From positions 899 to 64,898 of the forward strand of contig CAZZIU010000014.1 of NCBI GenBank assembly GCA_964654545.1: a DNA stretch of 64,000 nucleotides, in the 5' to 3' direction. The position numbers and the translations under genes were made by a program. Shown here piece by piece: positions 491 to 39,926 of the stretch (position 1 is its first letter; every line of letters starts with the position of its first letter). Source of the DNA: an uncultured bacterium. GTDB taxonomy: Bacteria > Fidelibacterota > Marinisomatia > Marinisomatales > JABMOV01. The notes beneath the pieces are model-generated. The model saw only the letters and a program-made list of their open reading frames with translations, did not search any database and was not told the DNA's origin.

Positions 491-3400
491 GTGAGTGTGA
501 GGGCAATCTGCGTCCTGTTCTTTTGTATTACAACCTATTCTCATTCTCAGTCCTATACCACTACCGAACCACTTCCTTTAAGCAACAAATACACCGTATT
601 TGGATTTCCCACAATGCCATTATCCATGGGTATGCTATCAGACACAGCAGTGGCGCCACATGGATGGCTAACGGCATCTTATGGGGATCGCGTAGTCGAG
701 ATTCACATAGATCGTGACTGGACCACCATCACCCTTACTGAATCCATTGATGGCAGGATAGTAAAAATGCCTTTTGTCGCTCCCATGGATTGGTATTTTT
801 CAAGTATGCTGGTGGTGAACCGTCAACTTTCATTTATTGCCAAAGTTAATGCGCTGATTAATCTATCCGAAGAAGACAAAACCACCGGTGGCGCCGGCAA
901 ATCAATTGAAGTTGTGGGGCTTAATCTGGGGGGTCTTGGCCGAGCATCGCTGCGGGTCAGAGGAAATGTAAATATTTCCGGTAAAATGGTCTTTCAGGAT
1001 CAGCAGCTTGTTGCATCAAGCGTTAAAGAGAATAACAACACGCACCTGGAATTCGATCAAAAACAGAATTTAAACATTGAAGGAAAAATTGGCGATCGTA
1101 TAACCGTTAAGATGGATCAGGATTCAGAACGGGATTTCGATTGGGAAAACAATATTCGCATCACCTATGATGGCCATGAGGACGATATTATACAGAAAGT
1201 TGAAGCCGGTAACATATCATTGTCACTTCCCGCTACACAATACGTGACTTTTTCAGGGTCGAATAAAGGGTTGTTTGGCTTAAAAGCAATTTCGAAACTG
1301 GGACCTTTGGATATAACAACCATCGCTTCCATAGAACAAACCAAAAAGGAGCAACAATCCTACAAAGGGAGCAACGAAAAAAAGACCACCGTGATAAAGG
1401 ATAATCAATATGTCAAAGATCAACACTTTATCATTCATGAGTGGTTCCGGAACGGGGTGAATTCTGATACGATTCCATACTACATAAATGACGATTTTAT
1501 CATTCCACCCTATTATCCCCTTAGCCAAGAAGGATACCATTATGTCGGGAACGTAAAAATTGTGGATTTTGAGCTATACAAAAGTTCCACGAGCAATGAC
1601 GCCTCCATTATCCCGGGTATTGCATACAGAGATGCCCTGGCGCAAGATCCTACCGGAACGGTCCAGCGAAATTTTATCAGGATGGAAAGAAATGTGGATT
1701 ATTATATTTCACCTGATTACGGCTATCTGCGATTAAATCAAAGTGCATACAATGTAGAATTAGGATGTACATTTTCGCTTGTTCTCAGGGATGGGTCAAA
1801 TAAGGAGCGCCTCATTACCATTGGTCACGGCATTACGGAAACAGATTCCGTACTGGCGCTAAAAATGATCAAGCCAATTTCTTCGTCATATGCGGACACC
1901 AAAACCTGGCCGCTGATGTTGAAAAACATTTACAATCTTGGGACCTCAAACATTATTCAGGAAGGGTTTGAGGTTCGAATTGTAAATACCAACAGTGCAA
2001 CGGTTACAGATAGGTTCAGAGATGGGAGATCGTTTCTGACACTATTTGGATTGGACAGGCAAGGTAAAAATGGGGAAGGAACACCTTCGGATGATCTCAT
2101 TGACCTGGATAATGCGAATATCATTAGCCTGGCAAACGGTGAGCTTGTATTGCCATTCTACCATCCGTTTGCAGTTGATACAGTTGAGGGTGGAAATCCG
2201 AATGAAGAGCTTCAGGATTTATTAGGTAATGGTGACATGTATTTTAATACCGCTCAATTGGCCAATGCGGATAATAATTTTGTCATTGAAGCCGATTACA
2301 CCAACCCTAGTTCAACCATTAGTCTTGGTTTTATGCTGGTGGAGGGCAGTGAAGAAATAAAAATCAATGGGGCAAAACAAAACAGAGGGATTGACTATCA
2401 AATTGACTATTTCACCGGGACAATAATACTGGAATCAGAATTAGCACAAGACCCCAATGCAGATATTCAAATCCTGTACGATAAACACGAATTGGTATCT
2501 TTTGATAAGAAGGTTATTGTAGGAACACGAGCTCAAATGGATATCAATGAAAATTCTTTTGTTGGGGCAACCGCACTGTATTTTAATCAATCTGTTATCG
2601 ATGAAAAAGTTGAAGTGGGGTATGAGCCTACGCGCAATTTTATTTGGGATGTAAATGGACGGTATGAAATTGGAATGGATGGTCTGACCCGCTGGCTTGA
2701 CAGGTTGCCGCTCATAGAGGCTAATCAAAGCAGTAAATTTTCTGTTGAAGGCGAGTTTGCCCAGGTTCTACCGAATCCCAATCCAATTAACAATAAAGCA
2801 ACCGGTGATCCAAATGGTGTTGCCTATATTGATGATTTTGAAGGAGCAAAACGCACCACCAATCCACCTATTTTGAGACGATACTGGAAGTATTCTTCTG
2901 CTCCGGTTGATGTATTGGCAGGAACAACCCTGAGGCAGGATTACCGATACAATATGTGGTGGTACAATCCCTATGACCAGGAATTAACAAAAAATATCTG
3001 GCCGAATCAGTCAACCTCTATTCAAGCAGGAAATGAAACAACAGATATATTGGTGCTTGCGCTGGAGAAAAAACCACACCAGTCCAATTTCCCAACTGAT
3101 TCATTGTGGGCCGGTATTACCACGTCATTCTACTCCGGTGATTATGATCAGACTAAAAGCAAATTTTTTGAAATATGGGTGAAAGGAACCAAGGGAAATC
3201 TTACCATCAATATTGGAAAAATAAGTGAAGATTCAGATGGGAATGGATTTTTAAACAACGAAGATAAAGCGGAGAGTTTACCCATAGGAAACGGGTTATT
3301 GGATGATGGAGAAGACACGGGTCTGGATGGGTGTTTCGATGAATACGAAGACGGTTGGGGAGGTTGTCTTTCCGACAGTACCTATGCTGACTATTACTCA

Positions 3401-6400
3401 GAATATTTAATTACAGGTAATCCCGGTCCCATAAATCCATTGGTGGCAGACAGTGACGATCCAAATGGAGATAACTGGTCGTACAGTGCTGGTAGCAGAG
3501 ACTACACAAGGATCAATGGGACGGAGGGAAATGGATCAGGAAGTCAGGTGCAGGAAGGTGGTCTCTATCCGGACACGGAGGATTTAGACCGATCAGGATT
3601 TTTGGATAATGAAAATGACTATTTCACTGCAACCCTGGATTTAATGGATACGACGTATCTTGCAGGAAGCACAGTGAAAGATGGCACACCCACGGGTTGG
3701 AAACTCTACAGAATACCTTTGTCCCACTTCCAAGGCCTGGATAAAATTACCTGGTCCGAAGCGAAAAATTTACGGCTTGTATGGTCCGGTATACAGGAAG
3801 ATGAAATAATAAATCGGGCCGCACTGCAAATCGCAAAAATTGAGTTAGTGGGCAACGAGTGGCTTGAGCTTGGTATATCGGATACATCCTCCAATATCTA
3901 TTCTTCTCATTACGAATGGCAGGATGCAGTATTTAATGGTGAAACCGGTTATGATACTCTCTATCACCGCACCAGAACGGATAGCATTTTTGCCGTCACT
4001 GTGGTAAACACAGAAGATAACGCCGATTACGAACCGCCCAGGGGTGTTCGAGGTGAGTACGATCCCATAAATCAATTGGAATCAAAAGAACAATCGCTTG
4101 TATTGAAATTTACCGAACTTCCATCAGGGTACAAGGCAGCAGCCCAGAAAACATTGTTGAATGTGTCTGGAGACAGAGCAAAAAGTTATTTGACCTATGA
4201 TTTTATGAAAATGTTTGTCTATGGAAATAGCGACTGGATTTCCTTTGATGACACGAAAGTGGATATTTTTCTTCAATTTGGATTTAAAAATAACTATTAT
4301 GAAATAATCCAACCTGTCTACGATCAGTGGGACGAGACGGAAAATCGAAATTCATTACTTGTTGATCTGAATTGGCTCACATCCTTAAAACAGAAAGATT
4401 CAACAAATATAAGCAAATTTCGAAATACAGATATTTTTATTGATTCAACCAACGTGAAACACTATTACTTTACCGACAGCAATGGAAACTTGACTGGCAA
4501 AAAAGTATCTATTTATGGGACACCGGCAATACAACGAAGTGATTATTTTAATGTGGGTGTAAGGAATCGCGCTGACGAACCAATCACAGGTGAAATTTGG
4601 TTGGATGAATTGCGGTTAAGCGGGGTGAAAAAGGAAAAGGGTGTCGCCATGCGGATGCAGTCAAAAGTGAATTTATCCGACATTGGCAATGCGACAATAA
4701 TCTATAGCCGTAAAGATGCAGATTTCCATGTGTTGCAGGAACGGTTAGGCTCCAACAACACAAAAGAGGATTTACGAATAAATACCTCAATTAATTTATC
4801 CAAATTTTTGCCGAAATCACTTGGGTTAAAAATTCCACTGACAACCAGTTATTCAAACTCTGTTAGCCTGCCTAAATATTTCCCCGGGTCGGATATTTAT
4901 ATCCCAACACAATCTGTACCAGATTCCATAAAAACACTGTCAGAATCGGTAACAATATCAACCAGTATTACAAAATCAAGTAAGTCTGATAATAAGATTA
5001 TCAAATACACACTGGATAACCTTAATGGCAGCTTTAGCGCGTCTAAACAATTTTTCTCTAATGATTTAATGGAAGAAAAAATTGACCAGAGTTATACCTG
5101 GAAAGGTGCCTACCATTTAAATTTTGGCAGAGATAACTATATTCGACCACTAAAATGGCTGGCCAACCTTCCACTTGTAGGAGATCGATTTGAAGAATTC
5201 CATTTGTACTATACACCATCGTCATGTAACACGAACGTCAATTTGACCGAGAAGATATCGTCGAAAAAACCAAGAAATGCAAATCCAACGCCACATAGCT
5301 ACGATATGGGATTGAACCGGGGCTTTGGACTTGATTATAAGTTGACCGAATCCATAGCGAGTCAGTACAAAAAAACACTCTCGAATGATTTAGATTATAT
5401 CTGGAGTCCATTAGGTTATAATTGGAATTTGAACGAATTTGACACGGGAATTCTTACCAATAGTACGGAAAGCTTGAGCACCAAGTACACGCCAGAAATT
5501 TTCAGTTGGTTAAAACCAAGTTTTAATCATACGGCCAATTACCGCTGGAATTACCCGCTTGGGAGCAGCAGTGGAGGAGCAAATATTGCAACACAGCTTC
5601 GCTTTAATACCAATGTTTCCCTGAGCCTGTCGTCCATTATGGATACTTTTTACAAGCCGGTTTCATCTGCCCCAAGGGGTCGGAGGCGACGGGGACAGTC
5701 TTTAGAAACCAATGAAACTAAAAAGAGCGCAGAAAAGTCTGATAATAAGATTCTAAAAACAGCGTATGCTTTTGTAAAAAAGATTGATCCAATTAGCTTA
5801 ACATTTACAGAATCATTAACTCGCAATGGAAACGGAGTACTTGGGAAAGTACCTACAGGATATAAATTTGGTTGGTTGCCGGATCATGGACTCTCCCATT
5901 CAGATCGTGTTGCATCCAACACCGGAAACTGGGACAATAGCCTTGATTTCGCTGTTCGATCCGGTCTGAGACCGATTCAAAATCTCAATGTATCTGTGAA
6001 TTATTCCCAAAACCTATCGCACGGTATTGGTGCAAGCGGAATTGACCAATGGAATATTACACGAGACTACGTGGGATATGGCGAGAACCTTTCTAAAGGA
6101 TTTCCTTTTAGTAGTTGGTCATTAAAAATTAATGGACTTGAAAAACTTCCCTATGTTAAAGATTATGTGAGATCATTGAGTTTCGAACATGCCTTTTCCG
6201 GGAAGGAAACGCGGGCCTGGCAATTCGATGATGACACAAGTACAGTTTCTGATCCATCTTTTTGGAACCTGGGTGAATTTATTGATAGCAACCAATCGGC
6301 AGAAAGATCAAGTAGGATTTCTTCAAATTTTACACCGTTAGCGGGATTAACATTTTCTTTTAAGAAAGGAATATCCCTTACTATGCGATACAACAAGTCC

Positions 6401-6781
6401 ACAACGCTTGAACAGCAAAACCAGGGACAAACGTTGCGCCTGGAATCTTCATTTAATGCAGGAGCGAACTATTCTCATCGAGGTGGTATCACTATACCGC
6501 TACCCATGATGGAAGATTTCCATATTAGCAATACAATGAACTTTAACTTTAATTATGAAAGCAATTCCAGGCAATCCAAAGGAAGAAGTGACATTACAGA
6601 GTCGTTTTCAAACCAGGATAAAAATTCAAGCTGGAAAGCGGGCTTAAGGGTTAGTTATTCGTTTACATCGCGAGTTAGCGGCGGACTTGTGTATGAATAT
6701 CGAGAGTCAAAAACCAGTCAATCCGGAAAGCGCATTGATCGTGATTTTGGATTTGATGTAAATATTGCAATATCAGGATGA
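491..6781 (+). CDS. sprA: T9SS translocon SprA/Sov-like giant outer-membrane beta-barrel protein
   Basis: 2096-aa ORF with a GTG start and a signal peptide (..TYSHS|Q). Composition is beta-rich (N/S/T/Y/F) throughout. The N-terminal block VEAGNISLSLP...GLFGLKA resembles the SprA N-terminal repeat as I recall it. Context supports the call: a glutaminyl-cyclase-like gene, PorV/PorQ-like barrels and CTD cargo lie directly downstream. Confidence 0.8.
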   Translation: MSVRAICVLFFCITTYSHSQSYTTTEPLPLSNKYTVFGFPTMPLSMGMLSDTAVAPHGWLTASYGDRVVEIHIDRDWTTITLTESIDGRIVKMPFVAPMDWYFSSMLVVNRQLSFIAKVNALINLSEEDKTTGGAGKSIEVVGLNLGGLGRASLRVRGNVNISGKMVFQDQQLVASSVKENNNTHLEFDQKQNLNIEGKIGDRITVKMDQDSERDFDWENNIRITYDGHEDDIIQKVEAGNISLSLPATQYVTFSGSNKGLFGLKAISKLGPLDITTIASIEQTKKEQQSYKGSNEKKTTVIKDNQYVKDQHFIIHEWFRNGVNSDTIPYYINDDFIIPPYYPLSQEGYHYVGNVKIVDFELYKSSTSNDASIIPGIAYRDALAQDPTGTVQRNFIRMERNVDYYISPDYGYLRLNQSAYNVELGCTFSLVLRDGSNKERLITIGHGITETDSVLALKMIKPISSSYADTKTWPLMLKNIYNLGTSNIIQEGFEVRIVNTNSATVTDRFRDGRSFLTLFGLDRQGKNGEGTPSDDLIDLDNANIISLANGELVLPFYHPFAVDTVEGGNPNEELQDLLGNGDMYFNTAQLANADNNFVIEADYTNPSSTISLGFMLVEGSEEIKINGAKQNRGIDYQIDYFTGTIILESELAQDPNADIQILYDKHELVSFDKKVIVGTRAQMDINENSFVGATALYFNQSVIDEKVEVGYEPTRNFIWDVNGRYEIGMDGLTRWLDRLPLIEANQSSKFSVEGEFAQVLPNPNPINNKATGDPNGVAYIDDFEGAKRTTNPPILRRYWKYSSAPVDVLAGTTLRQDYRYNMWWYNPYDQELTKNIWPNQSTSIQAGNETTDILVLALEKKPHQSNFPTDSLWAGITTSFYSGDYDQTKSKFFEIWVKGTKGNLTINIGKISEDSDGNGFLNNEDKAESLPIGNGLLDDGEDTGLDGCFDEYEDGWGGCLSDSTYADYYSEYLITGNPGPINPLVADSDDPNGDNWSYSAGSRDYTRINGTEGNGSGSQVQEGGLYPDTEDLDRSGFLDNENDYFTATLDLMDTTYLAGSTVKDGTPTGWKLYRIPLSHFQGLDKITWSEAKNLRLVWSGIQEDEIINRAALQIAKIELVGNEWLELGISDTSSNIYSSHYEWQDAVFNGETGYDTLYHRTRTDSIFAVTVVNTEDNADYEPPRGVRGEYDPINQLESKEQSLVLKFTELPSGYKAAAQKTLLNVSGDRAKSYLTYDFMKMFVYGNSDWISFDDTKVDIFLQFGFKNNYYEIIQPVYDQWDETENRNSLLVDLNWLTSLKQKDSTNISKFRNTDIFIDSTNVKHYYFTDSNGNLTGKKVSIYGTPAIQRSDYFNVGVRNRADEPITGEIWLDELRLSGVKKEKGVAMRMQSKVNLSDIGNATIIYSRKDADFHVLQERLGSNNTKEDLRINTSINLSKFLPKSLGLKIPLTTSYSNSVSLPKYFPGSDIYIPTQSVPDSIKTLSESVTISTSITKSSKSDNKIIKYTLDNLNGSFSASKQFFSNDLMEEKIDQSYTWKGAYHLNFGRDNYIRPLKWLANLPLVGDRFEEFHLYYTPSSCNTNVNLTEKISSKKPRNANPTPHSYDMGLNRGFGLDYKLTESIASQYKKTLSNDLDYIWSPLGYNWNLNEFDTGILTNSTESLSTKYTPEIFSWLKPSFNHTANYRWNYPLGSSSGGANIATQLRFNTNVSLSLSSIMDTFYKPVSSAPRGRRRRGQSLETNETKKSAEKSDNKILKTAYAFVKKIDPISLTFTESLTRNGNGVLGKVPTGYKFGWLPDHGLSHSDRVASNTGNWDNSLDFAVRSGLRPIQNLNVSVNYSQNLSHGIGASGIDQWNITRDYVGYGENLSKGFPFSSWSLKINGLEKLPYVKDYVRSLSFEHAFSGKETRAWQFDDDTSTVSDPSFWNLGEFIDSNQSAERSSRISSNFTPLAGLTFSFKKGISLTMRYNKSTTLEQQNQGQTLRLESSFNAGANYSHRGGITIPLPMMEDFHISNTMNFNFNYESNSRQSKGRSDITESFSNQDKNSSWKAGLRVSYSFTSRVSGGLVYEYRESKTSQSGKRIDRDFGFDVNIAISG

Positions 6782-7701
6782 TCACGGAAAAAATTATAGC
6801 AATATTTCTTGCAGTCGTTGTTTCCGCTTCCTGTCAGCAAGCGACCACATCATTTGATGCCCAACGAGCATACTCATTTCTTACAAAACAATGTGACTTT
6901 GGCCCACGGAATCCAGGATCCCCCGGATACGTTGCTTGTAAAGATTATTTGATAGATATGATGCAACAATTGGCTGACACGGTTATCACACAACCTTTCC
7001 AATATACGGATATGCGTGATCATAAAACACATGATTTGACCAATATCATCGCTCAATTTAATGTGGACCAACCCAACCACCTCCTCATTGGCGCGCACTG
7101 GGATACCCGTCCATGGGCTGATTGGGATCCCTATACTGATTTACGTGATCAACCTATTCTGGGTGCCAACGATGGCGCCAGCGGGGTAGCAGTATTATTG
7201 GAATTAGCGCACCAATTTCAGGTCAAATCACCGCCAATCAGCATAACACTCATTTTTTTGGATGGCGAAGACCTGGGTATCCCTGGCAACGTAAATTCCT
7301 ATGCGCAGGGATCCCAGTATTTTTCTAAACACCTACCAGTATCAGTTCCGGATCGCGCTATTATTCTGGATATGGTTGGGGATGCAAATCTGTCGCTGCC
7401 CATAGAACGGAATTCCTACCAGATAGCCCCCCAATTGGTTAAAGAATTATGGCAATTGGCCGAAGAATTGAAACTACCTGCTTTTAAATCCTTCATCGAC
7501 AAAACAATTTTTGATGATCATATACCATTGTGGGAATATGCCCGAATCCCGGCAATCGATATTATTGACTTTGATTACCCGTACGAAGGGGAAAACTATT
7601 GGCACACGCAGGATGATATTCCAGGGAATTGTTCTCCTGAGAGTCTGGACCAGGTTGGAACACTGCTGATAGAGTATATTTGGAGACAAAGCAATGATTG
7701 A
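6778..7701 (+). CDS. M28-family metallopeptidase-fold lipoprotein, glutaminyl-peptide cyclotransferase-like
   Basis: M28/QC metal-site blocks are present: GAHWDTRPWAD, GANDGASGVAVLLELA, FLDGEDLG, LDMVGD, DDHIPL, WHTQDD. Lipobox VSAS|C. ATGA overlap with the sprA stop. Confidence 0.75.
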   Translation: MITEKIIAIFLAVVVSASCQQATTSFDAQRAYSFLTKQCDFGPRNPGSPGYVACKDYLIDMMQQLADTVITQPFQYTDMRDHKTHDLTNIIAQFNVDQPNHLLIGAHWDTRPWADWDPYTDLRDQPILGANDGASGVAVLLELAHQFQVKSPPISITLIFLDGEDLGIPGNVNSYAQGSQYFSKHLPVSVPDRAIILDMVGDANLSLPIERNSYQIAPQLVKELWQLAEELKLPAFKSFIDKTIFDDHIPLWEYARIPAIDIIDFDYPYEGENYWHTQDDIPGNCSPESLDQVGTLLIEYIWRQSND

Positions 7702-8551
7702 TTGGTTAATGTTCACTCCCTATTTTTGTACCATGCGTCGTGTTGTGATACTCCTGTTTATTGCACTTCTTTTCTGGGGTTGCCCCGGCAATCAACCGGT
7801 CAATGTCAGTACCGAACCTTTGAGTGCACATTCATTTGTCTTTCTTCAGGATGATAATAAATTGGCCTTTTCTATCGTGGTAGAACCGAGTCTGAATGGC
7901 ACACAACTAAGTTCAGTCTGGGTGGATTGGTATGGAACCAATGCTGCAACCACTCCGGATACCATTGCCTTATACGACGACGGTTCTCATGGAGACATTA
8001 TTGGGGATGATCAGGTGTGGATGAGAAAAATTGTAAACGCACCTTCGATTGAGTTAACCAATTCCGTCTCAGTAAACGATAGTGGAAAAGTGTATGCCAT
8101 TTTTAATGCTCTCTTCGGAAGCCAGCTTTCGACAGTTTCCGACTCATTTCATTTAGGAAATTTAAAACCCTACCTGATCAGTGTTACGGCTCCCGATACG
8201 GTTACCAGACCGAATGCAGGCACATTACGTACTATCGAAATAAATTGTCAGGCCAATGACGGAAATGGGTTGTCCGATATTCGTTGGGTTGGATTCAGAT
8301 CTTACAGCGTTGCTCTGGATTCATTTTTATATGATGGGGGATATATTCTCCTTTACGATGATGGAAGCGATTCCGTTCTGTATCAACCGGATCTGACCAG
8401 CGGTGATGCAGTTGCGAACGATGGCATTTTTACGATTACAGCTCAAATACCATCTACCGCGAACACCGGTGCATTTGATTGGATTTTTGAAGCACAGGAT
8501 AAACACTATGAATACAGCGATACGCTGGTGCACAGGATAGTGGTGCAATGA
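7694..8551 (+). CDS. hypothetical lipoprotein with two Ig-like repeats (LYDDGS.GD...DG.F motif)
   Basis: The internal Met at 7733 gives a clean lipoprotein signal (MRRVVILLFIALLFWG|C). The motif is repeated as ALYDDGSHGDIIGDD and LLYDDGSDS..GDAVANDGIF. I recognise no family. Confidence 0.5.
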   Translation: MIDWLMFTPYFCTMRRVVILLFIALLFWGCPGNQPVNVSTEPLSAHSFVFLQDDNKLAFSIVVEPSLNGTQLSSVWVDWYGTNAATTPDTIALYDDGSHGDIIGDDQVWMRKIVNAPSIELTNSVSVNDSGKVYAIFNALFGSQLSTVSDSFHLGNLKPYLISVTAPDTVTRPNAGTLRTIEINCQANDGNGLSDIRWVGFRSYSVALDSFLYDGGYILLYDDGSDSVLYQPDLTSGDAVANDGIFTITAQIPSTANTGAFDWIFEAQDKHYEYSDTLVHRIVVQ

Positions 8552-10176
8552 AAAAACTGGTTATCATTATTACATTCATTGGTGGGTTGTTTTCTCAAAG
8601 CATGTATCCCACGCGCCATTATCTTAATGATCCCGCAGCTTACAGATCCTTTTCTGACGGGTTACTCAGCAATGTAATATCCGAAATCAAACTGCAGGGT
8701 GATTCTACTGTTTGGTTGGGAACCGGCAGGGGGTTAGCCCAAGTTGTGGATTCTTTAACCGTCATCACCATTGATACGTTAACGCTGGATACTGGGATGG
8801 TAGTGATGAATTATGGAATTTCGGCAATTGCTACAATGGGAAATCGTGTTGCATTTGGGGCAGCAACAAGCGACAATGATGTGTCGGTGGGTGCCGGGAT
8901 TTACACCACCGCGAATGCTAATGACTCCATAATTGTATGGCAGCGATTCTCCCAACCGGTGGATGCACAGGGTGATACTTCAGCCCCATTCGCGAGATGG
9001 TTTTTTAGGGCATTACCGGTTACCACAGATCACCAAAATGTTACCTACGATGCTTCCATATCTGGGAATTATTTATGGATCGCCAGTTGGGCAGGTGGAG
9101 TGCGACGATACGATATTGTTGGAAATGTTTGGGATCGCATACCCCTGCCTTTAGATGACACGAACGAACTAATCACGTGTGTCGATAGCGCATACACTGT
9201 AATTAATGGTAAACCCACTTTAAATAATTATAAGTTGAATCCACGGGATCCGTGGAATGGAAGACCACCAAAAAACACCAATCCCGATGCCTATGGCAAC
9301 CACAACCACAAAGGATTTTCTGTACTGGCCTATGGCGATACATTATGGGTGGGTACTGCAAATGGAATTAACCGCGGTATCATTGGGGTTGATGGCTGTA
9401 TTGATTGGATCCATTTTTATTATCCCGCTGACGATCTAACGGGTAATTTTGTCGTAGGACTGGCAAAGCAGGAATGGAACGGAGAGCGTAAAATTTGGGC
9501 GGCTTGTTTAACAGCCGATGACCTAAATGAAGAACGAGGCCTGGCCTGGACAAACAATGACGGTTTAACCTGGCACCGTACGCTTGTGGGAGAAAGAATC
9601 TACAATGTTACTGCACATGATTCAGTTGTACTTGCTTCTTCGGAAAAGGGGCTATGGAAATCGGAAGATGGTCAGACCTGGGCTCTATTCAAACCTGCAA
9701 AAGATGCCACACCATTGCAATCGGAAGAAATACTAAGCGATCAAGTCTACGCCGCTGCAATCGATGCGCGTCCTTACTATACCCAACCTGCCATTTGGAT
9801 AGGGACAGGAGACGGCTTAGCACGATCAGTCGATGTGGATGGGTCTGCCTGGAAAATATTCCGTGCTGAATACGATCCAAATTCCGTCTATGCCTATCCC
9901 AATCCGTTTTCCCCCACAGGACATAATATTATTGGTGGCGATGGGTACGTTCGATTTCATACGGATGTGACAACATCCTTTGTTATTGATATGAGCATTT
10001 ACAATTTTGCCATGGAACAGGTAATAAGTACAAAATTGGATCGTCGATTGGGAGAGGGAGCTCTCAAGTGGAATGGCAGGGATGCCAATGGTAGAATCGT
10101 CGACAATGGCACTTACTTCATCAGACTGAATTATGACAACAAGACAGAATGGCTCAAACTAATTGTAATCAAATGA
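8548..10176 (+). CDS. secreted beta-propeller protein (two-component-regulator-propeller-like blades) with a C-terminal FlgD-Ig-like sorting domain; PorZ-like candidate
   Basis: Signal peptide (..GGLFS|Q). Recurrent blades: VWLGTGRGLAQV, LWVGTANGINRG, IWIGTGDGLARS. C-terminus is YAYPNPFSP...WNGRDANGRIVDNGTYFIRL...LIVIK. ATGA overlap with the upstream gene. Confidence 0.65.
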   Translation: MKKLVIIITFIGGLFSQSMYPTRHYLNDPAAYRSFSDGLLSNVISEIKLQGDSTVWLGTGRGLAQVVDSLTVITIDTLTLDTGMVVMNYGISAIATMGNRVAFGAATSDNDVSVGAGIYTTANANDSIIVWQRFSQPVDAQGDTSAPFARWFFRALPVTTDHQNVTYDASISGNYLWIASWAGGVRRYDIVGNVWDRIPLPLDDTNELITCVDSAYTVINGKPTLNNYKLNPRDPWNGRPPKNTNPDAYGNHNHKGFSVLAYGDTLWVGTANGINRGIIGVDGCIDWIHFYYPADDLTGNFVVGLAKQEWNGERKIWAACLTADDLNEERGLAWTNNDGLTWHRTLVGERIYNVTAHDSVVLASSEKGLWKSEDGQTWALFKPAKDATPLQSEEILSDQVYAAAIDARPYYTQPAIWIGTGDGLARSVDVDGSAWKIFRAEYDPNSVYAYPNPFSPTGHNIIGGDGYVRFHTDVTTSFVIDMSIYNFAMEQVISTKLDRRLGEGALKWNGRDANGRIVDNGTYFIRLNYDNKTEWLKLIVIK

Positions 10177-11099
10177 AAAAGATACTATTTATCCTAACAT
10201 ATTTATCGTTGCTTAGTGCTGTGGATTATGCCGGTTATTCAGGTTCATTTTTACGCCTGGGGACAACAGCAAGATCGGTAGCCATGGGGTCGGCATTTAC
10301 AGCGGCTATTGATGATGCATTTGCAGCGTACCACAACCCGGCCGGGACAGCATTTATGGATTCACCGCGTGTGTCCGTCATTCACCATTCAATGCCACTG
10401 GATAGACGCTTGACCGCATCTGGATTTGCCATGAAATTGCCGCCGACGGCTGGTGTGAGTCTGGCATTTCTCCAAACCGCCACAACAAATATCGATGGTC
10501 GCACCCAGGCCGGACAGCAAACCGATATGCTGACCACCAGCGAAATGGCCGCCTATATCGGCTTTGCTCAACGCATAATGCCTTGGTTGTCGTTCGGTAT
10601 CAATATCAAAATCATGTACCAGTATTTACCACTAAATCAAGAAAAAATACGTGGGAATGGAACCGGTATTGATGTGGGAATTCTCGTTAAGCTGCCGAAA
10701 GAAAGGACACTGGGTTTCACCGTACAGGATTTGAACTCCGGTTATCATTGGGATACCAGTAAAATTCTTGAAAACGGAAGTGCTGATAATGTAAATAAAT
10801 TTCCAGTCATAACCCGTCTGGGTGCATCACTACCGGTAAAGATGTTGTTTGTTACGGCAGATGCAGGTGTGGTCACAGAAGGAAAAACCTACTTGGCGTC
10901 CACTTTTCGTTTTGGGGCTGAATTTCCATACAAAGAAAACTATTTCTTGCGGGCAGGATACGGTAATAACCGATTGGCAGTTGGTGTGGGGATGAAATAT
11001 CGCTTCAGAAATCCTGGAGATGCAGCCATTGACTACAGTGCTGCAGTGGATGCCAGCGGCGGACTTAATCACATTTTTACATTTGCGTTCAAATTATGA
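10173..11099 (+). CDS. PorV/PorQ-family outer-membrane beta-barrel protein
   Basis: I chose the internal ATG at 10173 (MKKILFIL..., ATGA overlap with the upstream stop). The N-terminal signature GSFLRLGTTARSVAMGSAF...AAYHNPAGTAF matches the PorV/PorQ pattern (FL.l..sAR..alGg ... NPA). The protein ends FTFAFKL. Confidence 0.65.
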   Translation: MKKILFILTYLSLLSAVDYAGYSGSFLRLGTTARSVAMGSAFTAAIDDAFAAYHNPAGTAFMDSPRVSVIHHSMPLDRRLTASGFAMKLPPTAGVSLAFLQTATTNIDGRTQAGQQTDMLTTSEMAAYIGFAQRIMPWLSFGINIKIMYQYLPLNQEKIRGNGTGIDVGILVKLPKERTLGFTVQDLNSGYHWDTSKILENGSADNVNKFPVITRLGASLPVKMLFVTADAGVVTEGKTYLASTFRFGAEFPYKENYFLRAGYGNNRLAVGVGMKYRFRNPGDAAIDYSAAVDASGGLNHIFTFAFKL

Positions 11100-11962
11100 A
11101 GCAATTGATCGGATTACAATTTTTTCTATGCACTGTGTTATTTGGGACAGGTGCAGGATTTTTATCCATTCCTGCAACGGCGGAGGCTATGGCCCGCGGT
11201 GATCACCCACTGGCATCATCATTTTCCGCACTAAATCCGGCAGGAAACAGGAAGGTAGCAGGACAACCACTCCTAAACATGAGCTATGGATCATGGTTAG
11301 CAGATGCAGAACAAATGACCATTACGTATGCTACCGATAGATTTGATGGCACAGTGGTCGTAAAAGGTCGCTATGTGGGATTGTCCGATTTGGAATTGAG
11401 AACGGAGACTCCAACCGATGATCCATTGGGATATTTCGAAAGTTTTGGCGCCAACGTTGAAATCCAGTATACGAGACGTCTACATAATCTGCAGCTGGGA
11501 TTGGGAATGAAAGCGACCCGCCTGCAATTGTACACCGCTGGTGCAAAGGGGTATGCGTTGGATGTAGGTGTTCTTTATACAGTCAACAAAACAGTTGATG
11601 TTGGTGTGACCATATTAAACATGGGTGGTTTTGAGAGCTGGGGATTACGCAATCCCAGTTTTCCTTTGCGTGTTATTGGCGGAATTGGTGCCAGTCTGGA
11701 GAGTTTGCCCATGCAACCATCATTCATGCTTTCTGCAGAAAATTCATCCCTCACCGATGGCATTATTCTGCGAGTTGGTGATGAATTAATCTGGAAACAA
11801 CTGGTGGTCAGGTCGAGCATGGGATGGTCCAAAGAAGTTTTTGTGCGATCCGCTGGGATTGGTATTCGTTTAGGCATGTATTCAATTAATTACGGTTTTC
11901 AAGTCGGTTCGCAGCACTTGGGAATTCCCCATCTCATCGATGTATCTGTTCTTCTTCCCTGA
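11096..11962 (+). CDS. PorV/PorQ-like outer-membrane beta-barrel protein (divergent paralog)
   Basis: GAGFLSIPATAEAMARGD...SALNPAGN N-terminal signature. Alternating beta-strand pattern. ATGA overlap with the upstream gene. Confidence 0.5.
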   Translation: MKQLIGLQFFLCTVLFGTGAGFLSIPATAEAMARGDHPLASSFSALNPAGNRKVAGQPLLNMSYGSWLADAEQMTITYATDRFDGTVVVKGRYVGLSDLELRTETPTDDPLGYFESFGANVEIQYTRRLHNLQLGLGMKATRLQLYTAGAKGYALDVGVLYTVNKTVDVGVTILNMGGFESWGLRNPSFPLRVIGGIGASLESLPMQPSFMLSAENSSLTDGIILRVGDELIWKQLVVRSSMGWSKEVFVRSAGIGIRLGMYSINYGFQVGSQHLGIPHLIDVSVLLP

Positions 11963-12786
11963 TGAAAAAAGTTAACTATTCGCTGGCATTAAATGTCATT
12001 TTATCCGTTCTGGTGATCGCGCTGGTAACAGTGTTACTGGTTATGCGCCATGAAGTCACCGAACCAGTCACCGGGCAAGAGGAGATGCCAACCGAAAGGC
12101 AACTATCAAAGGTGCCCAAACCAAAGGGTAGTATTGTTATAATTATTGATGATTTCGGCTATCGCAACGATGAGATTTCCGATGGATTCTTAGCCCTGGA
12201 TGTTCCCATAACCTGTGCCATTATTCCCGGACACAGAAACAGCGCCACATTTGCACAAAAAGCCATAAGTGCTGGCAAAGAGGTAATTATTCATATGCCC
12301 ATGGAATCCCATTCTGAAACACAGGGGGAGGATGAGTATATCTTGAAGACAGTCATGACCAGCACGGAATTGGAAAGTCGTATACGTCGTGCCTATAGCG
12401 AAATACCACAGGCAATTGGGATGAACAATCATCAGGGATCAAAAGCAACCGAAGACAGCCGTGTGATGCGTGTATTGGCATTAACCCTAAAAGATTTAGG
12501 AAAATTCTTTGTGGATAGCCGTACTACCGCCAAATCCATTGGAGAAAAGACCATGCAGCGCATCGGTGTAAAGACCCGACGCAGGAATGTGTTTCTGGAT
12601 AATGAATTTGATCCTGCTTTGATTCAGGAGCAGTTGGTTGAGCTGGTGGAAAAATCCGATAAATGGGGATTGGCTTTGGGTATTGGTCATGCCAAACAGG
12701 CCACTCTCAGTGTGCTTGAATCGGAAATACCAAGACTGCAAAAAGAAGGGTATTCTTTTACATTTGTCTCTGAAATAGTGGAGTAA
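11962..12786 (+). CDS. divergent polysaccharide deacetylase family protein (YibQ-like)
   Basis: N-terminal TM helix followed by the blocks IVIIIDDFGYRNDE, IIHMPME and MNNHQGSKATED, typical of the YibQ/divergent deacetylase family. TGATG overlap with the upstream gene. Confidence 0.8.
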   Translation: MKKVNYSLALNVILSVLVIALVTVLLVMRHEVTEPVTGQEEMPTERQLSKVPKPKGSIVIIIDDFGYRNDEISDGFLALDVPITCAIIPGHRNSATFAQKAISAGKEVIIHMPMESHSETQGEDEYILKTVMTSTELESRIRRAYSEIPQAIGMNNHQGSKATEDSRVMRVLALTLKDLGKFFVDSRTTAKSIGEKTMQRIGVKTRRRNVFLDNEFDPALIQEQLVELVEKSDKWGLALGIGHAKQATLSVLESEIPRLQKEGYSFTFVSEIVE

Positions 12787-12861
12787 GTCCGTTTAAACTC
12801 AACTATAATATTTTCGAATTATACATAATCGGTATTTTCTGAAGACCTTTTAAAAAACACA

Positions 12862-14589
12862 ATGGGCATGTATACACATATACGATCGATTATTTCAACC
12901 TGTTTTCTCGTAACCATTTCTTTTTGTTCAACGCAACGGGTTATGACGTATAACACATTGAATTATTCCGGCAGCAATACGGATAAAGATGCGGCATTCC
13001 GGATTGTAATCGAAAACGCAGAGCCGGATATGATAATCGCTGAGGAAATTGGAGATCAATCAGGATACACAAATTTTCTTTCACATGTACTGAACTACAC
13101 GACGAATAATCTATATGCAGGTGCACCCTTTACGGAACAAAGCGAAACCAATGTGGACATCGCCCTGTATTACAAGCCCACTATATTCTCTTTTGTTAGT
13201 ACGAGTAGAATTAATACAACAGATATCTGGGGGAGACGTGATGTAATCGAGTTTGTCATGCGTCATGATGCCTCAGGCGTTGAATTTCGAATATATGGTT
13301 GCCACCTGAAGGCTGGAACCAATTCTGATGACGAAAACGAGCGTACTGCCGAAGCCACCCAATTGCGCAATTATTTGAATTCATTGGATGGTGAGACGCC
13401 ATTCATTGTCGCCGGTGATTTGAATCTTTACGACAACGGGGAGGGGGCATTCCAGGTACTCATTGAGTCACAATCCGACAATGATGGGCGCTGTTTTGAC
13501 CCGGTCGATCGTATCGGAAATTGGCATAATAACGCGTCGTATGCCGATGTGCATACCCAATCCCCGCGAGGTGGAAATTACGGTGGAATGGATGATCGCT
13601 TCGACTGGTTGCTTGTTTCTGATGCAATTTTGAATGGAACCGATATACAATATCTGGAAAATTCATACACCCCCTTTGGAAATGATGGAAACCACTTTAA
13701 TCTTGCCATAAACGAAGGAACAAATACAGCGGTTTCGGCTGCAGTTGCCGATGCCCTCGTGGGCGCCTCAGATCACCTCCCTGTATTCCTGGAATTGGAA
13801 TTTGATGATTTGACACCATCTGAAGCAAAACTTGTCATAACAGAAATCATGCCCAATCCCAGTATGGTCAGTGATACGTACGGGGAATGGTTTGAAGTAT
13901 ATAATCAGGACTCAATTTCCCATAATCTGTTTCATTGGACGCTCAAGGATGCGGATACGGATTCTCATCGCATTGAGGATAATCTTATTATTGAACCGGG
14001 AAATTATATTGTACTGGGAAGAAATGCAGACAGCACACAAAATGGCGGACTGCAGGTTGATTATGTGATCCACAATTTTATTTTATCCAATACGGTGGAT
14101 GAGATCATTTTTTGGGACAGTTTGGGCTACCTGGTGGATGAAGTTGTCTATGACAACACTTTTCCGTTTGGTAACGGTGCTTCCATGTATGTTGCGGATA
14201 TGGAGCTGGACAACAATAATCCTGATAACTGGTATGTTTCCAGTACGCCCTATGGCGTTGGTGATTTTGGCACTCCAGGAAAAGCATGGGACGATACACT
14301 GGGAATTGTAACTGGTTCCATACCAGTATACTTTCATTTATCATCAGCCTACCCAAATCCATTTAATAATGGGGTACGATGGGAGATAGAATTACCTGTT
14401 TCGGCAGAAATGACAATTAAAATTCACAATCTTCTTGGTGAAGAGGTGACAACCATCTGGAGCGGGTATCTTCCTAGGGGGAAACAGAAATTCTCATGGA
14501 ATCCTGTAAATCAGGCTTCCGGCATCTATTTTATTACACTTCAGAGTGTAACGAACGTCCAAAATCTTAAACTGATATATTTAAAATAA
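12862..14589 (+). CDS. secreted EEP nuclease/phosphatase + lamin-tail domain + T9SS C-terminal sorting domain
   Basis: EEP blocks: MTYNTLNY, IIAEEIGD, VAGDLNLYD, DDRFDWLL, SDHLPVFLELEF. LTD block: VITEIMPNPS...GEWFEVYN...WTLKD. CTD: AYPNPFNNG...GIYFITLQS...LKLIYLK. Confidence 0.85.
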   Translation: MGMYTHIRSIISTCFLVTISFCSTQRVMTYNTLNYSGSNTDKDAAFRIVIENAEPDMIIAEEIGDQSGYTNFLSHVLNYTTNNLYAGAPFTEQSETNVDIALYYKPTIFSFVSTSRINTTDIWGRRDVIEFVMRHDASGVEFRIYGCHLKAGTNSDDENERTAEATQLRNYLNSLDGETPFIVAGDLNLYDNGEGAFQVLIESQSDNDGRCFDPVDRIGNWHNNASYADVHTQSPRGGNYGGMDDRFDWLLVSDAILNGTDIQYLENSYTPFGNDGNHFNLAINEGTNTAVSAAVADALVGASDHLPVFLELEFDDLTPSEAKLVITEIMPNPSMVSDTYGEWFEVYNQDSISHNLFHWTLKDADTDSHRIEDNLIIEPGNYIVLGRNADSTQNGGLQVDYVIHNFILSNTVDEIIFWDSLGYLVDEVVYDNTFPFGNGASMYVADMELDNNNPDNWYVSSTPYGVGDFGTPGKAWDDTLGIVTGSIPVYFHLSSAYPNPFNNGVRWEIELPVSAEMTIKIHNLLGEEVTTIWSGYLPRGKQKFSWNPVNQASGIYFITLQSVTNVQNLKLIYLK

Positions 14590-14768
14590 TCGGTTATAAT
14601 GTCATTATCGTTAATCGGATTATTGTTTCGTATTCTAATCCTGACTAATTTGAAATCCTGTTCCGTTCAAATTGTATGCACATAGGATTCACAACATTAT
14701 TCGTCGAAAAAATAAGCAATTTAACGGTCAAATATTTTAATACAAAGCAACACAAAAGGGAGATCATT

Positions 14769-17696
14769 ATGTCTAAAATGATACTCAGTTTATTGGTACT
14801 ATCTTTTTCTTTCGGCCAGGTCACAAATGTTGACTGGGAAACGCAGGTTTATCCCATATTTAGTGATGCCGGCTGTCACAGTTGTCATGGTGCTTCCGGT
14901 GGGTTTACCATTGGTGGAACAGCCACTGAAGCCTATTCTAATATTGTAAACCAAATGAGTTCATGCAATTCGTTGGATTATATTGAACCATTCGATACAA
15001 GTGCATCCCATTTATATCTAAAAATTACTGGCAATCAGGACTGTGGAGCCAGAATGCCCTATAACAACCAAACCTATTTTGATAGCCATACGGATCAACT
15101 TGAATTAATTCAAGTGTGGATTCAGGAAGGTGCCCTTCCGGCAGCAGAAACGACTGATGGTGGTGTCTTTATTAGTGAATATATCGAAGGGTCATCCAAT
15201 AACAAAGCGCTGGAAATATTTAACGCAACTGGTGCTGATTTGGATTTGAGTACTTTGGAAATAAAATTATCACGAAACGGTTTCGGTTGGGGAATGTACG
15301 ATGCGACGACGGCGGAACCAGGCTTTATATATCCATTATCCGGGACATTGCAATCGGGGGATGTGTATGTACTGGCAGCCGATGCAGCTGGAACAGAAAT
15401 ACTTGCAGCAGCGGATGTTGCTCTGGCCTATCCAAGTGTTTGCCATTTTAACGGGGATGATGCCATTGGTCTATTCGAAAATGGTGTTTTAATTGATATC
15501 ATTGGTGTAGAACTCGAAGACCCCGGTTCAGCCTGGGACGTAGCTGGTGAAGGTGCCGCAACGGGAGAACATACTTTGGTTAGAAAAGCTTCTGTGAATG
15601 TTGGCACAACCGATTGGTCGGCTTCCGCCGGTACAAATGCGGATGATTCGGAATGGATAGTTTATGCACAGGATACGTTTGAATATCTTGGTTTCCATGT
15701 CTGGTCTGGTGGGGGCGGAGAAAATCTTGCTCCAGTGGCAAACGCAGGGTCAGATCAAACCGTTGGTTACAGTGAAGAAATAACACTCGATGGATCCTCC
15801 AGTCTTGATCCTGATGGGACCATAGATAGTTACCTTTGGAATCAGGTGAGCGGTACTTCCGTGACACTGAATAATGCACCTACGAGTATTGCGACCTTTA
15901 CATCTCCAGGTAGCGATGCCACTCTGGTATTTACATTACAGGTTACGGATGATCAGGGCGCCACGGATACAGACACCGTTACTGTAAATGTTTTAAATAT
16001 TTCACCTTCAGCTGTATTCTTCAGTGAATACATTGAAGGTTCAAGCTACAATAAAGCTGTTGAAATTTTCAACGGTACAGAAGGAACAATCGACCTGGCA
16101 GATTACCAATTCTGGCAAATTTCCGGAGGTGGAGAATGGCCGGAATATACGATTGATTTGACCGGATCACTGGCAGCAGGTGAAACCTATGTTATTTGTC
16201 ATCCGGATGCTGATGCTGCCATGCTGGCGGTTGCAGATTTGGTTATTACTCTGTATCACAACGGTGATGATGCACAGGGAATTGCCCAAAATTTTGCCGG
16301 TACGTGGATACTCATTGATGCCATCGGGGAAAGCGGTGATGCCCCAACCGGAGGTTGGGATGTTGCCGGTGTATCTCAAGGTACAAAGGATCACACCTTA
16401 GTGCGTCAATCAACCGTCTTAACAGGAAATACGGATTGGTCATCTTCCGCCGGTACCAATGCTTCAGATTCTGAATGGATCGTATACGATGTGAACACAT
16501 TTGATTATTTGGGAACCCATAATCAGAATGCGGATGCGCCAGTGATAGTAAACCTTTCGGCGACGCCGGACTTTGTAACTTCTACGACGGAGTTGGAGGT
16601 GTCGGCCGATATCACGCCAGTCGTAGGTACAGTTACGTCCGCCTCCATCTGGTACGGGACGGATGGTTCTCTTTTGAACGAAGCGGTAATGTGGCTCGAA
16701 TCCGGAACCACATGGATGGGATTAATACCACCCCAATCAGGGAATTCAGTTCTTCAGTTCCAAGTTAGTGGGACTGATGACGCAGGCAACACGGGTGAAT
16801 CCACCACACTGTCCGTATTGGTAGCAAGTTCTACACCAACATCCATCGCAGATATCCAGGCTGATGTCGCTTCTTATGTGGATCAAATTGTGACATTACA
16901 GGGTATTGTAACCATCGGTGTTGGCGTATTGGATGAAGATGACACCAAGGCCTATATCCAGGATGCATCCGGACGAGGATTGAATATTTTTGATTTTGAT
17001 ATATTACCAAATATGGATCGTGGCGATGAACTCCAAATGGTTGGATACATCGATCAGTATTTCACGACGACGGAAATTGTCGATTTTGTATATCAACGAC
17101 TATCCACTGGAAATACGATTCCCGCGGTTCAAGAGGTCACGGTTACACAGGCAAATTCATCAAACTACGAAGGTACATTCATTCAAATTAACGGTGAAGT
17201 AACCAATTCAGTGGTTGTGGGTGGTGGACAAAAAATAACGATTTCCGATGGTGGAGATTCCACTTTTGTGATGATCTGGCCTTCAACCGGAATTGACGTA
17301 ACGCCACTTACTGTGGGATCTACATGGTCGCTTGCCGGTGTAGGCAGTCAGTATTCCGACGAATACCAGCTTTTGGTGGGTTATTCTGATGATATAGTGA
17401 ATCTGGGGATTGATGATGACCTCATTATCCCAACGCAGTTTGGATTGCACAACGCCTATCCCAACCCCTTTAACCCGGCCACCACTTTGACATGGACCCT
17501 GGATCATTCCGGAGAACATGAATTGGCTGTGTACAATATTCTTGGACAGCAGGTGTCAATGCTGAGCAAAGGGTATAAAAATGCCGGTTCATATACATCA
17601 GTCTGGCAGGCGGGAAGCCTCAGTTCAGGAGTGTATTTTGTTCAATTAACGGCTGAAAACAAAAAGGATATTCACAAAATCCTGCTGGTTAAATAA
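14769..17696 (+). CDS. T9SS cargo: PSCyt1-like CXXCH domain + LTD + PKD-like + LTD + NucH-type beta-barrel unit + CTD
   Basis: Start at the internal ATG 14769 (AAGGGAG 7 nt upstream; signal ..SFSFG|Q). GCHSCHG lies at 14874-14888. Two ExeM-type LTDs (VFISEYIEGSSNNKALEIFN and VFFSEYIEGSSYNKAVEIFN). PKD-like block PVANAGSDQTV..LDGSSS.DPDG. The unit IADIQ...VTLQGIVT...YIQDASGRGLNIF..GDELQMVGYIDQY. CTD AYPNPFNPATT...GVYFVQL...ILLVK. Confidence 0.8.
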   Translation: MSKMILSLLVLSFSFGQVTNVDWETQVYPIFSDAGCHSCHGASGGFTIGGTATEAYSNIVNQMSSCNSLDYIEPFDTSASHLYLKITGNQDCGARMPYNNQTYFDSHTDQLELIQVWIQEGALPAAETTDGGVFISEYIEGSSNNKALEIFNATGADLDLSTLEIKLSRNGFGWGMYDATTAEPGFIYPLSGTLQSGDVYVLAADAAGTEILAAADVALAYPSVCHFNGDDAIGLFENGVLIDIIGVELEDPGSAWDVAGEGAATGEHTLVRKASVNVGTTDWSASAGTNADDSEWIVYAQDTFEYLGFHVWSGGGGENLAPVANAGSDQTVGYSEEITLDGSSSLDPDGTIDSYLWNQVSGTSVTLNNAPTSIATFTSPGSDATLVFTLQVTDDQGATDTDTVTVNVLNISPSAVFFSEYIEGSSYNKAVEIFNGTEGTIDLADYQFWQISGGGEWPEYTIDLTGSLAAGETYVICHPDADAAMLAVADLVITLYHNGDDAQGIAQNFAGTWILIDAIGESGDAPTGGWDVAGVSQGTKDHTLVRQSTVLTGNTDWSSSAGTNASDSEWIVYDVNTFDYLGTHNQNADAPVIVNLSATPDFVTSTTELEVSADITPVVGTVTSASIWYGTDGSLLNEAVMWLESGTTWMGLIPPQSGNSVLQFQVSGTDDAGNTGESTTLSVLVASSTPTSIADIQADVASYVDQIVTLQGIVTIGVGVLDEDDTKAYIQDASGRGLNIFDFDILPNMDRGDELQMVGYIDQYFTTTEIVDFVYQRLSTGNTIPAVQEVTVTQANSSNYEGTFIQINGEVTNSVVVGGGQKITISDGGDSTFVMIWPSTGIDVTPLTVGSTWSLAGVGSQYSDEYQLLVGYSDDIVNLGIDDDLIIPTQFGLHNAYPNPFNPATTLTWTLDHSGEHELAVYNILGQQVSMLSKGYKNAGSYTSVWQAGSLSSGVYFVQLTAENKKDIHKILLVK
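15165..15698 (+). repeat. intragenic duplicated module, copy 1 (ExeM-type lamin-tail domain, ~178 aa)
   Basis: Copy 1 VFISEYIEGSSNNKALEIFN...GTTDWSASAGTNADDSEWIVYAQDTFEYLGFH aligns end to end with copy 2. Confidence 0.8.
16014..16520 (+). repeat. intragenic duplicated module, copy 2 (ExeM-type lamin-tail domain, ~169 aa)
   Basis: Copy 2 VFFSEYIEGSSYNKAVEIFN...GNTDWSSSAGTNASDSEWIVYDVNTFDYLGTH is a diverged duplicate of 15165-15698. Confidence 0.8.
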
Positions 17697-17699
17697 ACT

Positions 17700-23037: not shown

Positions 23038-23044
23038 GATTAAC

Positions 23045-26304: not shown

Positions 26305-26308
26305 CATC

Positions 26309-29579: not shown

Positions 29580-29596
29580 AGAAACAGGAGCATAGA

Positions 29597-39920: not shown

Positions 39921-39926
39921 CCTAAC

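Follow-up and report, generated by a model that had tools for sequence, protein, structure and literature searches.

A 64,000-nucleotide stretch of DNA from an uncultured bacterium (hereafter the window; positions 899 to 64,898 of contig CAZZIU010000014.1, assembly GCA_964654545.1) carries a predicted operon of seven genes. It opens with sprA, the gene for the outer-membrane translocon of the T9SS (type IX secretion system), and continues with genes for a type II glutaminyl cyclase-like lipoprotein, a lipoprotein with immunoglobulin (Ig)-like domains, a secreted beta-propeller with a sorting domain, two PorV-family beta-barrels and a YibQ-type deacetylase (genes 1 to 7; Table 1). The order and tight spacing of these genes are conserved across the sampled genomes of the phylum, the catalytic residues of the cyclase are intact, and Gln is enriched at position +1 of the exported proteins encoded in the window. 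We consider it probable that the operon provides the outer-membrane end of a T9SS together with a co-expressed cyclase that stabilises envelope proteins in general. None of the parts falls outside known families and folds. What is new is the arrangement: a phylum-conserved operon unites sprA and a type II cyclase gene with genes for a single-propeller protein that has a sorting domain and for two small PorV-like barrels, in a lineage outside the Bacteroidetes that also obeys the Gln rule (Q-rule), by which most signal peptidase I substrates carry Gln at +1.

Identification of the translocon gene

Gene 1 scored 679.8 bits against the SprA equivalog model TIGR04189 (cutoff 200; E 9.7e-204), matched the Pfam domain SprA_N (E 8e-32) and aligned with SprA of Flavobacterium johnsoniae (6h3i/6h3j; E 1.5e-51 for 6h3j_A). 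A first-pass annotation of this DNA had named the open reading frame (ORF) at 491 as SprA, and the profile searches bore this out. For its signal peptide, cleavage is predicted at SHS/QSY (slashes mark cleavage sites), which would leave Gln at +1. For comparison with related genomes, one genome per species was scanned for gene 4; relatives were present in 474 genomes, and the best 80 loci were examined. The window comes from the Marinimicrobia (SAR406, Fidelibacterota), as did all named gene 4 homologues among the best 80.

Propeller protein and PorV-family barrels

The AlphaFold2 (AF2) model of the gene 4 protein (pLDDT 77.7) showed one propeller and one C-terminal Ig-like domain. Its signal peptide is cleaved at LFS/QSM, leaving a Gln at +1 that is at least 90% conserved in orthologues. 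In Foldseek searches PorZ of Porphyromonas gingivalis (5m11) ranked first (1.5e-11), statistically tied with the propellers of BT4663-type Bacteroides hybrid two-component sensors (4.5e-11). PorZ was also the top PDB sequence match of the family profile, with E 0.0034 over the last blade and the sorting domain. Against the NCBIfam PorZ equivalog NF052228, gene 4 failed, reaching 17.4 bits in the sorting-domain region only (cutoff 260), and the single propeller of the AF2 model departs from the PorZ architecture of two propellers and a sorting domain. Gene 4 is PorZ-like in fold class and architecture only, that is, a regulator-type propeller followed by a sorting domain, and is not a PorZ orthologue. 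The PorZ-like label of the first-pass annotation holds to that extent and no further.

Conservation within the protein was uneven. Among gene 4 orthologues the sorting domain (window 9883-10176) was 61% identical and the propeller 51%, making the sorting domain the best-conserved part. The pattern was reversed in a neighbouring cargo nuclease, where the sorting domain (window 14350-14589) was the least-conserved part, at 33% compared with 55% elsewhere in the protein. In the P. gingivalis attachment complex, the uncleaved sorting domains of PorZ and PorU sit in PorQ and PorV. The conservation seen in gene 4 fits a docking domain that would be retained in the same way. As a separate observation, the contrast between gene 4 and the cargo nuclease might offer a simple way of telling, from sequence, T9SS sorting domains that are retained from those that are cleaved.

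Genes 5 and 6 are paralogous (hhalign probability 93%), and the family profile of each found F. johnsoniae PorV (6h3i_F) as its sole solved match, with E 4e-8 for gene 5 and 1.4e-8 for gene 6. PorV was reached by family profiles only; single-sequence PDB searches with genes 3, 5 and 6 returned nothing. Gene 5 passed the PorV family model NF033709 (PorV_fam) with 104 bits (cutoff 90), and gene 6, at 63 bits, fell under it. Both failed the PorV/PorQ equivalogs NF033710 (cutoff 250) and NF033711 (cutoff 220), scoring 43-44 bits each. The window contains four PorV-family genes in all, the two outside the operon lying at 19700-20587 (35 bits) and 37468-38466 (173 bits). The second of these outscores both operon barrels, and the operon copies therefore need not be functional PorV or PorQ; they may be specialised paralogues. 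Membership in the PorV/PorQ family, as first annotated, was retained, and by these profile scores genes 5 and 6 are not assignable to PorV or PorQ specifically.

The PorV family looks expanded in the window and is often paired with a partner gene. The gene at 19700 overlaps the stop codon of a large upstream LTD/OB-fold gene with a sorting domain, and the gene at 37468 overlaps that of a TonB-dependent receptor gene, likewise large and upstream.

Gene 4 could be ordinary T9SS cargo, a surface propeller that binds a ligand, and genes 5 and 6 could encode general FadL/PorV-like porins. Foldseek does not separate PorZ from ligand-sensing propellers, one gene 4 homologue is labelled 'ligand-binding sensor domain-containing protein' in its source, and the other PorV-family genes of the window come after unrelated secreted or outer-membrane proteins. 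The sorting domain of gene 4, however, is its best-conserved part, the opposite of what the neighbouring cargo shows. Gene 4 relatives are as widespread as the 474 genomes indicate, sprA always adjoined in the 80 loci examined, and the junction of genes 4 and 5 overlaps in 72% of genomes. We regard the cargo explanation as unlikely.

Organisation and conservation of the operon

The seven-gene, overlap-coupled run that had been described at 491-12786 was confirmed by the ORF coordinates and by the junctions read from the sequence. Start and stop codons overlap by 4 nt (ATGA) at 6778, 8548, 10173 and 11096, and by 1 nt (TGATG) at 11962. The sixth junction is set by the start codon chosen for gene 3. 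The 8-nt overlap given in the first-pass annotation stands if gene 3 starts at ATG 7694, which has GGAG 8 nt upstream; the amino acids of the resulting 13-codon extension ('MIDW...') are kept in the closest relatives (P0122-P0127) and absent in more distant ones. It is replaced by a 31-nt gap if the start is ATG 7733, which opens a canonical lipoprotein signal, MRRVVILLFIALLFWG/C. Genes 2 and 3 are tightly packed under either start. In gene 5 the first ATG is at 10149. A start at ATG 10173 yields the ATGA overlap together with a canonical signal peptide, MKKILFILTYLSLLSA; we favour 10173 because the median gap at this junction in orthologues is -1 nt.

A scan of the sequence found no terminator-like site at any operon junction. 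The window as a whole held 19 such sites against 13.3 ± 3.9 expected, i.e. no enrichment, and promoter and terminator scans of the window yielded nothing beyond shuffled expectation. Rfam and tRNA scans found no RNA genes in the window. Counted in the ORF listing, about one third of the remaining same-strand junctions of the window also overlap. The genome is compact and such overlaps are common in it, so that one alone says little. Six tight junctions in succession form the longest run in the window, and by itself this run is not remarkable.

Gene order was examined in the 80 species-level loci. The order Ham1, then sprA, cyclase gene, genes 3, 4, 5 and 6, and yibQ was present in essentially all loci whose length allowed it to be seen, at 45-72% identity in gene 4 and about 50% in SprA. 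Median gaps across about 75 species-level genomes were +3 nt (sprA to cyclase), +23 nt (cyclase to gene 3), -4 nt (gene 3 to gene 4), -1 nt (gene 4 to gene 5), -17 nt (gene 5 to gene 6) and +2 nt (gene 6 to yibQ). The flanks were looser: the median was +107 nt between Ham1 and sprA and +979 nt between yibQ and the next conserved gene, often with an extra gene between. In about 73 genomes sprA and the cyclase gene are direct neighbours, the median gap being 3 nt. The gene order is thus conserved, with tight internal gaps, in related metagenome-assembled genomes.

Three loci of a divergent, apparently streamlined lineage (L064, L066 and L079) have sprA, the cyclase gene and genes 4, 5 and 6 contiguous, without gene 3 and yibQ. 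In L064 the five-gene operon, at 2745-13375, is directly followed by genes for a TPR protein, NUDIX, QueG and, first of these, a short EEP nuclease; the nuclease/TonB region of the window, about 28 kb, is absent there. As a control, we took the best 80 metagenomic loci around close relatives of the Tannerella forsythia cyclase, most likely of Bacteroidota origin; identities ran from 52 to 100%, and 43 loci were 15 kb or longer. Within 10 kb, all 80 lacked sprA and every other gene of the operon.

The same picture could arise if these envelope genes had simply been inherited as a block and the genome is a compact one, their products not interacting specifically and their spacing a result of streamlining. 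The overlaps at a third of the other same-strand junctions of the window are in keeping with this, as are the restriction of the conservation evidence to one phylum and the positions of the flanking Ham1 and EEP nuclease genes, which are often conserved too. Yet those flanks vary in spacing and content, with Asparaginase_II inserted and yibQ followed by a gap of about 1 kb, while the internal junctions remain within a few nt of 0 even at 45-50% protein identity. The streamlined lineage dropped gene 3 and yibQ and kept the other five contiguous, and SprA-PorV is a known physical complex (PDB 6h3i). An inherited block of this kind appears to us a rather improbable account of the operon.

Glutaminyl cyclase and N-terminal glutamine

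Gene 2 had been described as an M28/glutaminyl cyclase-like lipoprotein, and a comparison with aminopeptidases set beforehand came out in favour of that description. The closest PDB relatives were bacterial glutaminyl cyclases, all matched over the full length (6qro, 1.2e-47; 4fuu, 7e-46; 6qql, 9e-44; also 7d1d and 7cje). These solved relatives come from Tannerella, Porphyromonas, Bacteroides and Parabacteroides. The best aminopeptidase match, 6hc6 (E 3e-5), was about 40 orders of magnitude weaker. Taudte et al. (PMC7948796) separate the bacteroidal cyclases from two-zinc aminopeptidases by an Asp-Gly at the first zinc ligand, a Glu-Asp and a Trp-His, and all three are present here as D132-G133, E164-D165 and W275-H276. 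D132-G133, E164-D165, D198 and H276 were invariant in 76 orthologues; W275, which precedes H276, was kept in 71%. The protein matches the single-zinc Asp/Asp/His site with a catalytic Glu (PgAsp149, Glu182-Asp183, His299), with Gly after the first Asp. By sequence the M28 lipoprotein groups with the bacterial type II glutaminyl cyclases and not with the aminopeptidases, and its intact catalytic residues suggest an active enzyme. The lipobox Cys is retained in nearly all orthologues, which predicts an N-terminal lipid anchor.

N-termini of the window ORFs of at least 150 aa were inspected for likely substrates. Gln was at +1 in 14 of 21 type I signal peptides, the exported proteins concerned lying at 491-48174 (examples in Table 1). 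An unbiased heuristic, which looked behind the hydrophobic core for the first residue that is not hydrophobic, gave Gln in 13 of 27 and the next residue type in 4. In this 64-kb sample, then, most signal peptidase I substrates have Gln at +1, as the Q-rule states. An automated count of +1 Gln on orthologue N-termini was set aside as too crude, since Asn within signal peptides and the conserved GTQFLS motif of gene 6 confuse it; the listed N-termini and the alignment were used instead. In Bacteroidetes the mean Q-value is 71% over all compartments, with nearly all above 48% (PMC5837995), and the Q-rule has been described as exclusive to that group (PMC10653852). Ignavibacterium is an outlier with a Q-value of 77%.

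The first-pass annotation had read the operon as pointing to functional coupling of pyroglutamate formation with T9SS export. This claim was not supported. Gln at +1 occurs on proteins without a sorting domain, among them the TonB-dependent receptor at 34673, the outer-membrane barrels at 37468 and 40952, the YtfJ-like protein at 41732 and periplasmic proteins, and it is missing from the sorting-domain proteins at 12862 and 17700. Because non-cargo proteins carry Gln too, the cyclase is probably a general envelope enzyme.

The cyclase might nevertheless be a dedicated T9SS accessory, with pyroglutamate formation mechanistically coupled to SprA export, for example through licensing or protection of cargo or through translocon assembly. 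Such a role would suit the sprA-cyclase adjacency in about 73 genomes, which survives in the five-gene streamlined version, and the 'striking phylogenetic coincidence' of T9SS and high Q-values noted by Bochtler et al. (PMC5837995). In P. gingivalis, moreover, 86% of T9SS parts and cargo are Gln-positive (PMC10653852). The distribution of Gln in the window runs counter to it on both sides, in the many proteins that have Gln and no sorting domain and in the two that have a sorting domain and no Gln. Experiments in P. gingivalis also argue against pyroglutamate controlling T9SS targeting, and the cyclase gene there lies in an unrelated operon. A dedicated accessory role consequently seems improbable. 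We are equally doubtful of a bolder version in which the cyclase is assembled with SprA or needed for its function, the co-occurrence of Gln rule and T9SS is mechanistic and was lost or hidden in Porphyromonas, and the one-propeller, two-barrel module replaces PorU, PorV, PorQ and PorZ. The linkage, which is real and conserved, may still reflect a weaker form, looser coupling through co-expression or assembly. That gene 2 encodes a periplasmic aminopeptidase is very improbable: Pfam gives Peptidase_M28 alone and NCBIfam adds weak aminopeptidase and DapE matches, against which stand the top PDB matches, all of them cyclases, the Asp-Gly (not Asp-Asn or Asp-Asp), Glu-Asp and Trp-His features specific to cyclases, and the substrate signature of Gln at +1 seen in the genome.

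Accessory and neighbouring genes

The AF2 model of the gene 3 lipoprotein (pLDDT 83.6) had generic FN3/Ig tandems as its Foldseek matches, and the sole match to a known model was an 18-residue 'choice-of-anchor X' motif. We found 37 relatives, and all of those with a source name were Marinimicrobia or Fidelibacterota. Gene 7 matched PF04748 over the full domain (215.4 bits, cutoff 27.5), in agreement with its earlier description as a YibQ-type deacetylase, and has an N-terminal hydrophobic helix visible in the sequence. VimE, a CE4 deacetylase of the anionic lipopolysaccharide (A-LPS) linking-sugar pathway that acts on a sugar precursor, was considered as a counterpart of gene 7 and rejected, since CE4 is a different family. 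The Ig-domain lipoprotein and the YibQ-type protein are regarded as accessory because the streamlined lineage lacks both.

Directly downstream of the operon, 12862-32824 holds a run of genes for secreted nucleic-acid-degrading enzymes, several with T9SS sorting domains, which looks like an extracellular DNA-scavenging locus. Within this cluster, 22901-24388 encodes a FadL/TodX-family outer-membrane protein with a weak BamG-like match; its start is probably the Met of MKYTY near 23045 rather than 22901. At 34673-40880, genes for a TonB-dependent receptor-like protein, a PorV-family barrel, an NHL-repeat lipoprotein and a secreted protein are joined by 1-nt overlaps and may form a second outer-membrane module. 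A minus-strand cluster at 44548-49704 includes an ECF-type sigma factor, an anti-sigma-like protein, a LiaG-like protein and two further exported proteins.

Table 1. Features of the window (positions in the 64,000-nucleotide stretch; a single number is the position by which the gene is named in the text)
Feature	Position	Strand	Basis
Seven consecutive ORFs (genes 1 to 7)	491-12786	+	All coordinates of the first-pass annotation verified in the ORF listing
Gene 1, sprA/sov, T9SS outer-membrane translocon, 2096 aa, GTG start	491..6781	+	TIGR04189
Gene 2, type II (animal/bacteroidal-type) glutaminyl cyclase-like M28 lipoprotein, 307 aa, lipobox VSAS/C	6778..7701	+	PDB relatives
Gene 3, lipoprotein with two tandem Ig/FN3-like beta-sandwich domains, lipobox LFWG/C	7694 or 7733..8551	+	AF2 model, Foldseek
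Gene 4, secreted single beta-propeller (~35-440) and C-terminal Ig-like sorting domain (~446-542)	8548..10176	+	AF2 model
Gene 5, PorV/PorQ-family outer-membrane beta-barrel, copy 1, 308 aa from 10173	10173..11099	+	NF033709
Gene 6, PorV/PorQ-family outer-membrane beta-barrel, copy 2, 288 aa, divergent paralogue of copy 1	11096..11962	+	Family profile
Gene 7, YibQ-type divergent polysaccharide deacetylase, N-terminal membrane anchor, 274 aa	11962..12786	+	PF04748
EEP nuclease with LTD	12862		
ExeM-like LTD protein	14676		
LTD and OB-fold protein	17700		
5'-nucleotidase/EEP fusion	24346		
MnuA-like lipoprotein nuclease	26249		
ExeM/NucH-like protein	29597		
Gln-exposing genes, examples	14676, 19700, 20584, 22901, 27465, 29597, 34673, 37468, 39927, 40952, 41732		N-termini
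Gln-exposing gene, example	46939	-	N-terminus
Anti-sigma-like protein	48171-49154	-	
ECF-type sigma factor	49144-49704	-	

Discussion

The reading that we favour, a T9SS outer-membrane end encoded together with a general cyclase, would work as follows. SprA would be the translocon pore. The gene 4 protein and the two PorV-family barrels would most likely form a barrel-plus-tethered-protein assembly at or beside it, on the model of PorQ-PorZ and PorV-PorU in P. gingivalis, with an uncleaved sorting domain docking in a PorV-type barrel. By this analogy the gene 4 protein would be tethered to one of the two barrels, and a barrel would dock on SprA as PorV does in 6h3i. On most exported proteins, signal peptidase I would leave an N-terminal Gln that the cyclase most likely turns into pyroglutamate, and SprA and the gene 4 protein would be among its substrates. 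Its role would be to stabilise envelope proteins in general, with expression alongside the translocon, rather than to serve as a step in T9SS export. The Ig-domain lipoprotein and the YibQ-type deacetylase would have accessory roles.

Several points weigh against this reading. The PorU sortase and PorK, PorL, PorM and PorN were not found within the window. The relationship of gene 4 to PorZ is marginal, given the Foldseek tie with sensor propellers and the sequence E-value of 0.0034, and the strongest PorV-family score in the window belongs to the barrel at 37468-38466, outside the operon. Co-transcription of the seven genes is a prediction from their spacing. All of the conservation comes from one phylum, and inherited synteny could explain part of it. 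The Gln rule was assessed on 64 kb, by inspection and a heuristic, without SignalP.

T9SS and the Gln/pyroglutamate rule have both been described as Bacteroidetes traits, and a mechanistic link between them was earlier rejected on P. gingivalis data. The predicted operon brings together two features previously known only to co-occur in the same bacterial groups. A cyclase gene right after sprA throughout the sampled genomes of a sister phylum, itself with a Gln bias at the Bacteroidetes level, makes a concrete and testable genomic link. We found no earlier description of sprA with a glutaminyl cyclase, or of Marinimicrobia with T9SS, in the open-access literature. These results also extend the Gln rule to one of the most abundant bacterial groups of the deep ocean, and for structural work the five genes of the streamlined lineage offer a candidate for a minimal outer-membrane module of the T9SS. 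Even if the linkage reflects co-regulation only, it annotates five to seven 'hypothetical' genes across the 474 genomes (one per species).

Comparison with known systems

As in the SprA/Sov-PorV complex of F. johnsoniae and P. gingivalis (6h3i/6h3j), the SprA barrel here is very large; it scores above the equivalog cutoff, and cargo with C-terminal sorting domains is encoded nearby. The SprA described here is about 300 residues shorter than that of F. johnsoniae (2096 aa compared with 2403 aa). The two barrels, for which F. johnsoniae PorV is the sole solved relative, are about 100 residues shorter than it. In the window sprA, the cyclase gene and two PorV-family genes are on one operon, an arrangement that the 80 T. 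forsythia-type cyclase loci do not have.

With the PorU-PorV-PorQ-PorZ attachment complex of P. gingivalis (5m11), the gene 4 protein shares an Ig-like sorting domain that comes after a regulator-type propeller. Its sequence-profile and structural matches are both headed by PorZ, in the structural case tied with sensor propellers. Its sorting domain is strongly conserved, as docking retention would predict, and its gene adjoins those of PorV/PorQ-family barrels. PorZ, however, has two propellers and the gene 4 protein one; the PorU sortase was not found in the operon or elsewhere in the window, and we saw no evidence here of an A-LPS-type anchor.

Gene 7 and YibQ of Escherichia coli have in common the divergent deacetylase domain (PF04748) and a membrane anchor, facing the periplasm. 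In E. coli the gene is linked to envC in the envC-yibQ operon, whereas here it is linked to T9SS genes.

The P. gingivalis cyclase PgQC (PG2157; PMC5837995, PMC10653852, PMC7948796) is, like the present protein, a lipid-anchored type II enzyme with an Asp/Asp/His zinc site and the Asp-Gly hallmark. PgQC is anchored in the inner membrane, and the lipobox Cys is likewise conserved here. PgPhe294, the Phe four residues ahead of the Trp-His, has no aligned counterpart in the present cyclase. The PgQC gene comes first in an unrelated operon of three genes, the other two encoding an Fe-S protein and HemG (PMC10653852), whereas the cyclase gene here comes directly after sprA. The Q-rule has been described for Bacteroidetes only and the organism here belongs to the Marinimicrobia, yet about two thirds of the type I signal peptides in the window expose Gln as well, across all envelope compartments.

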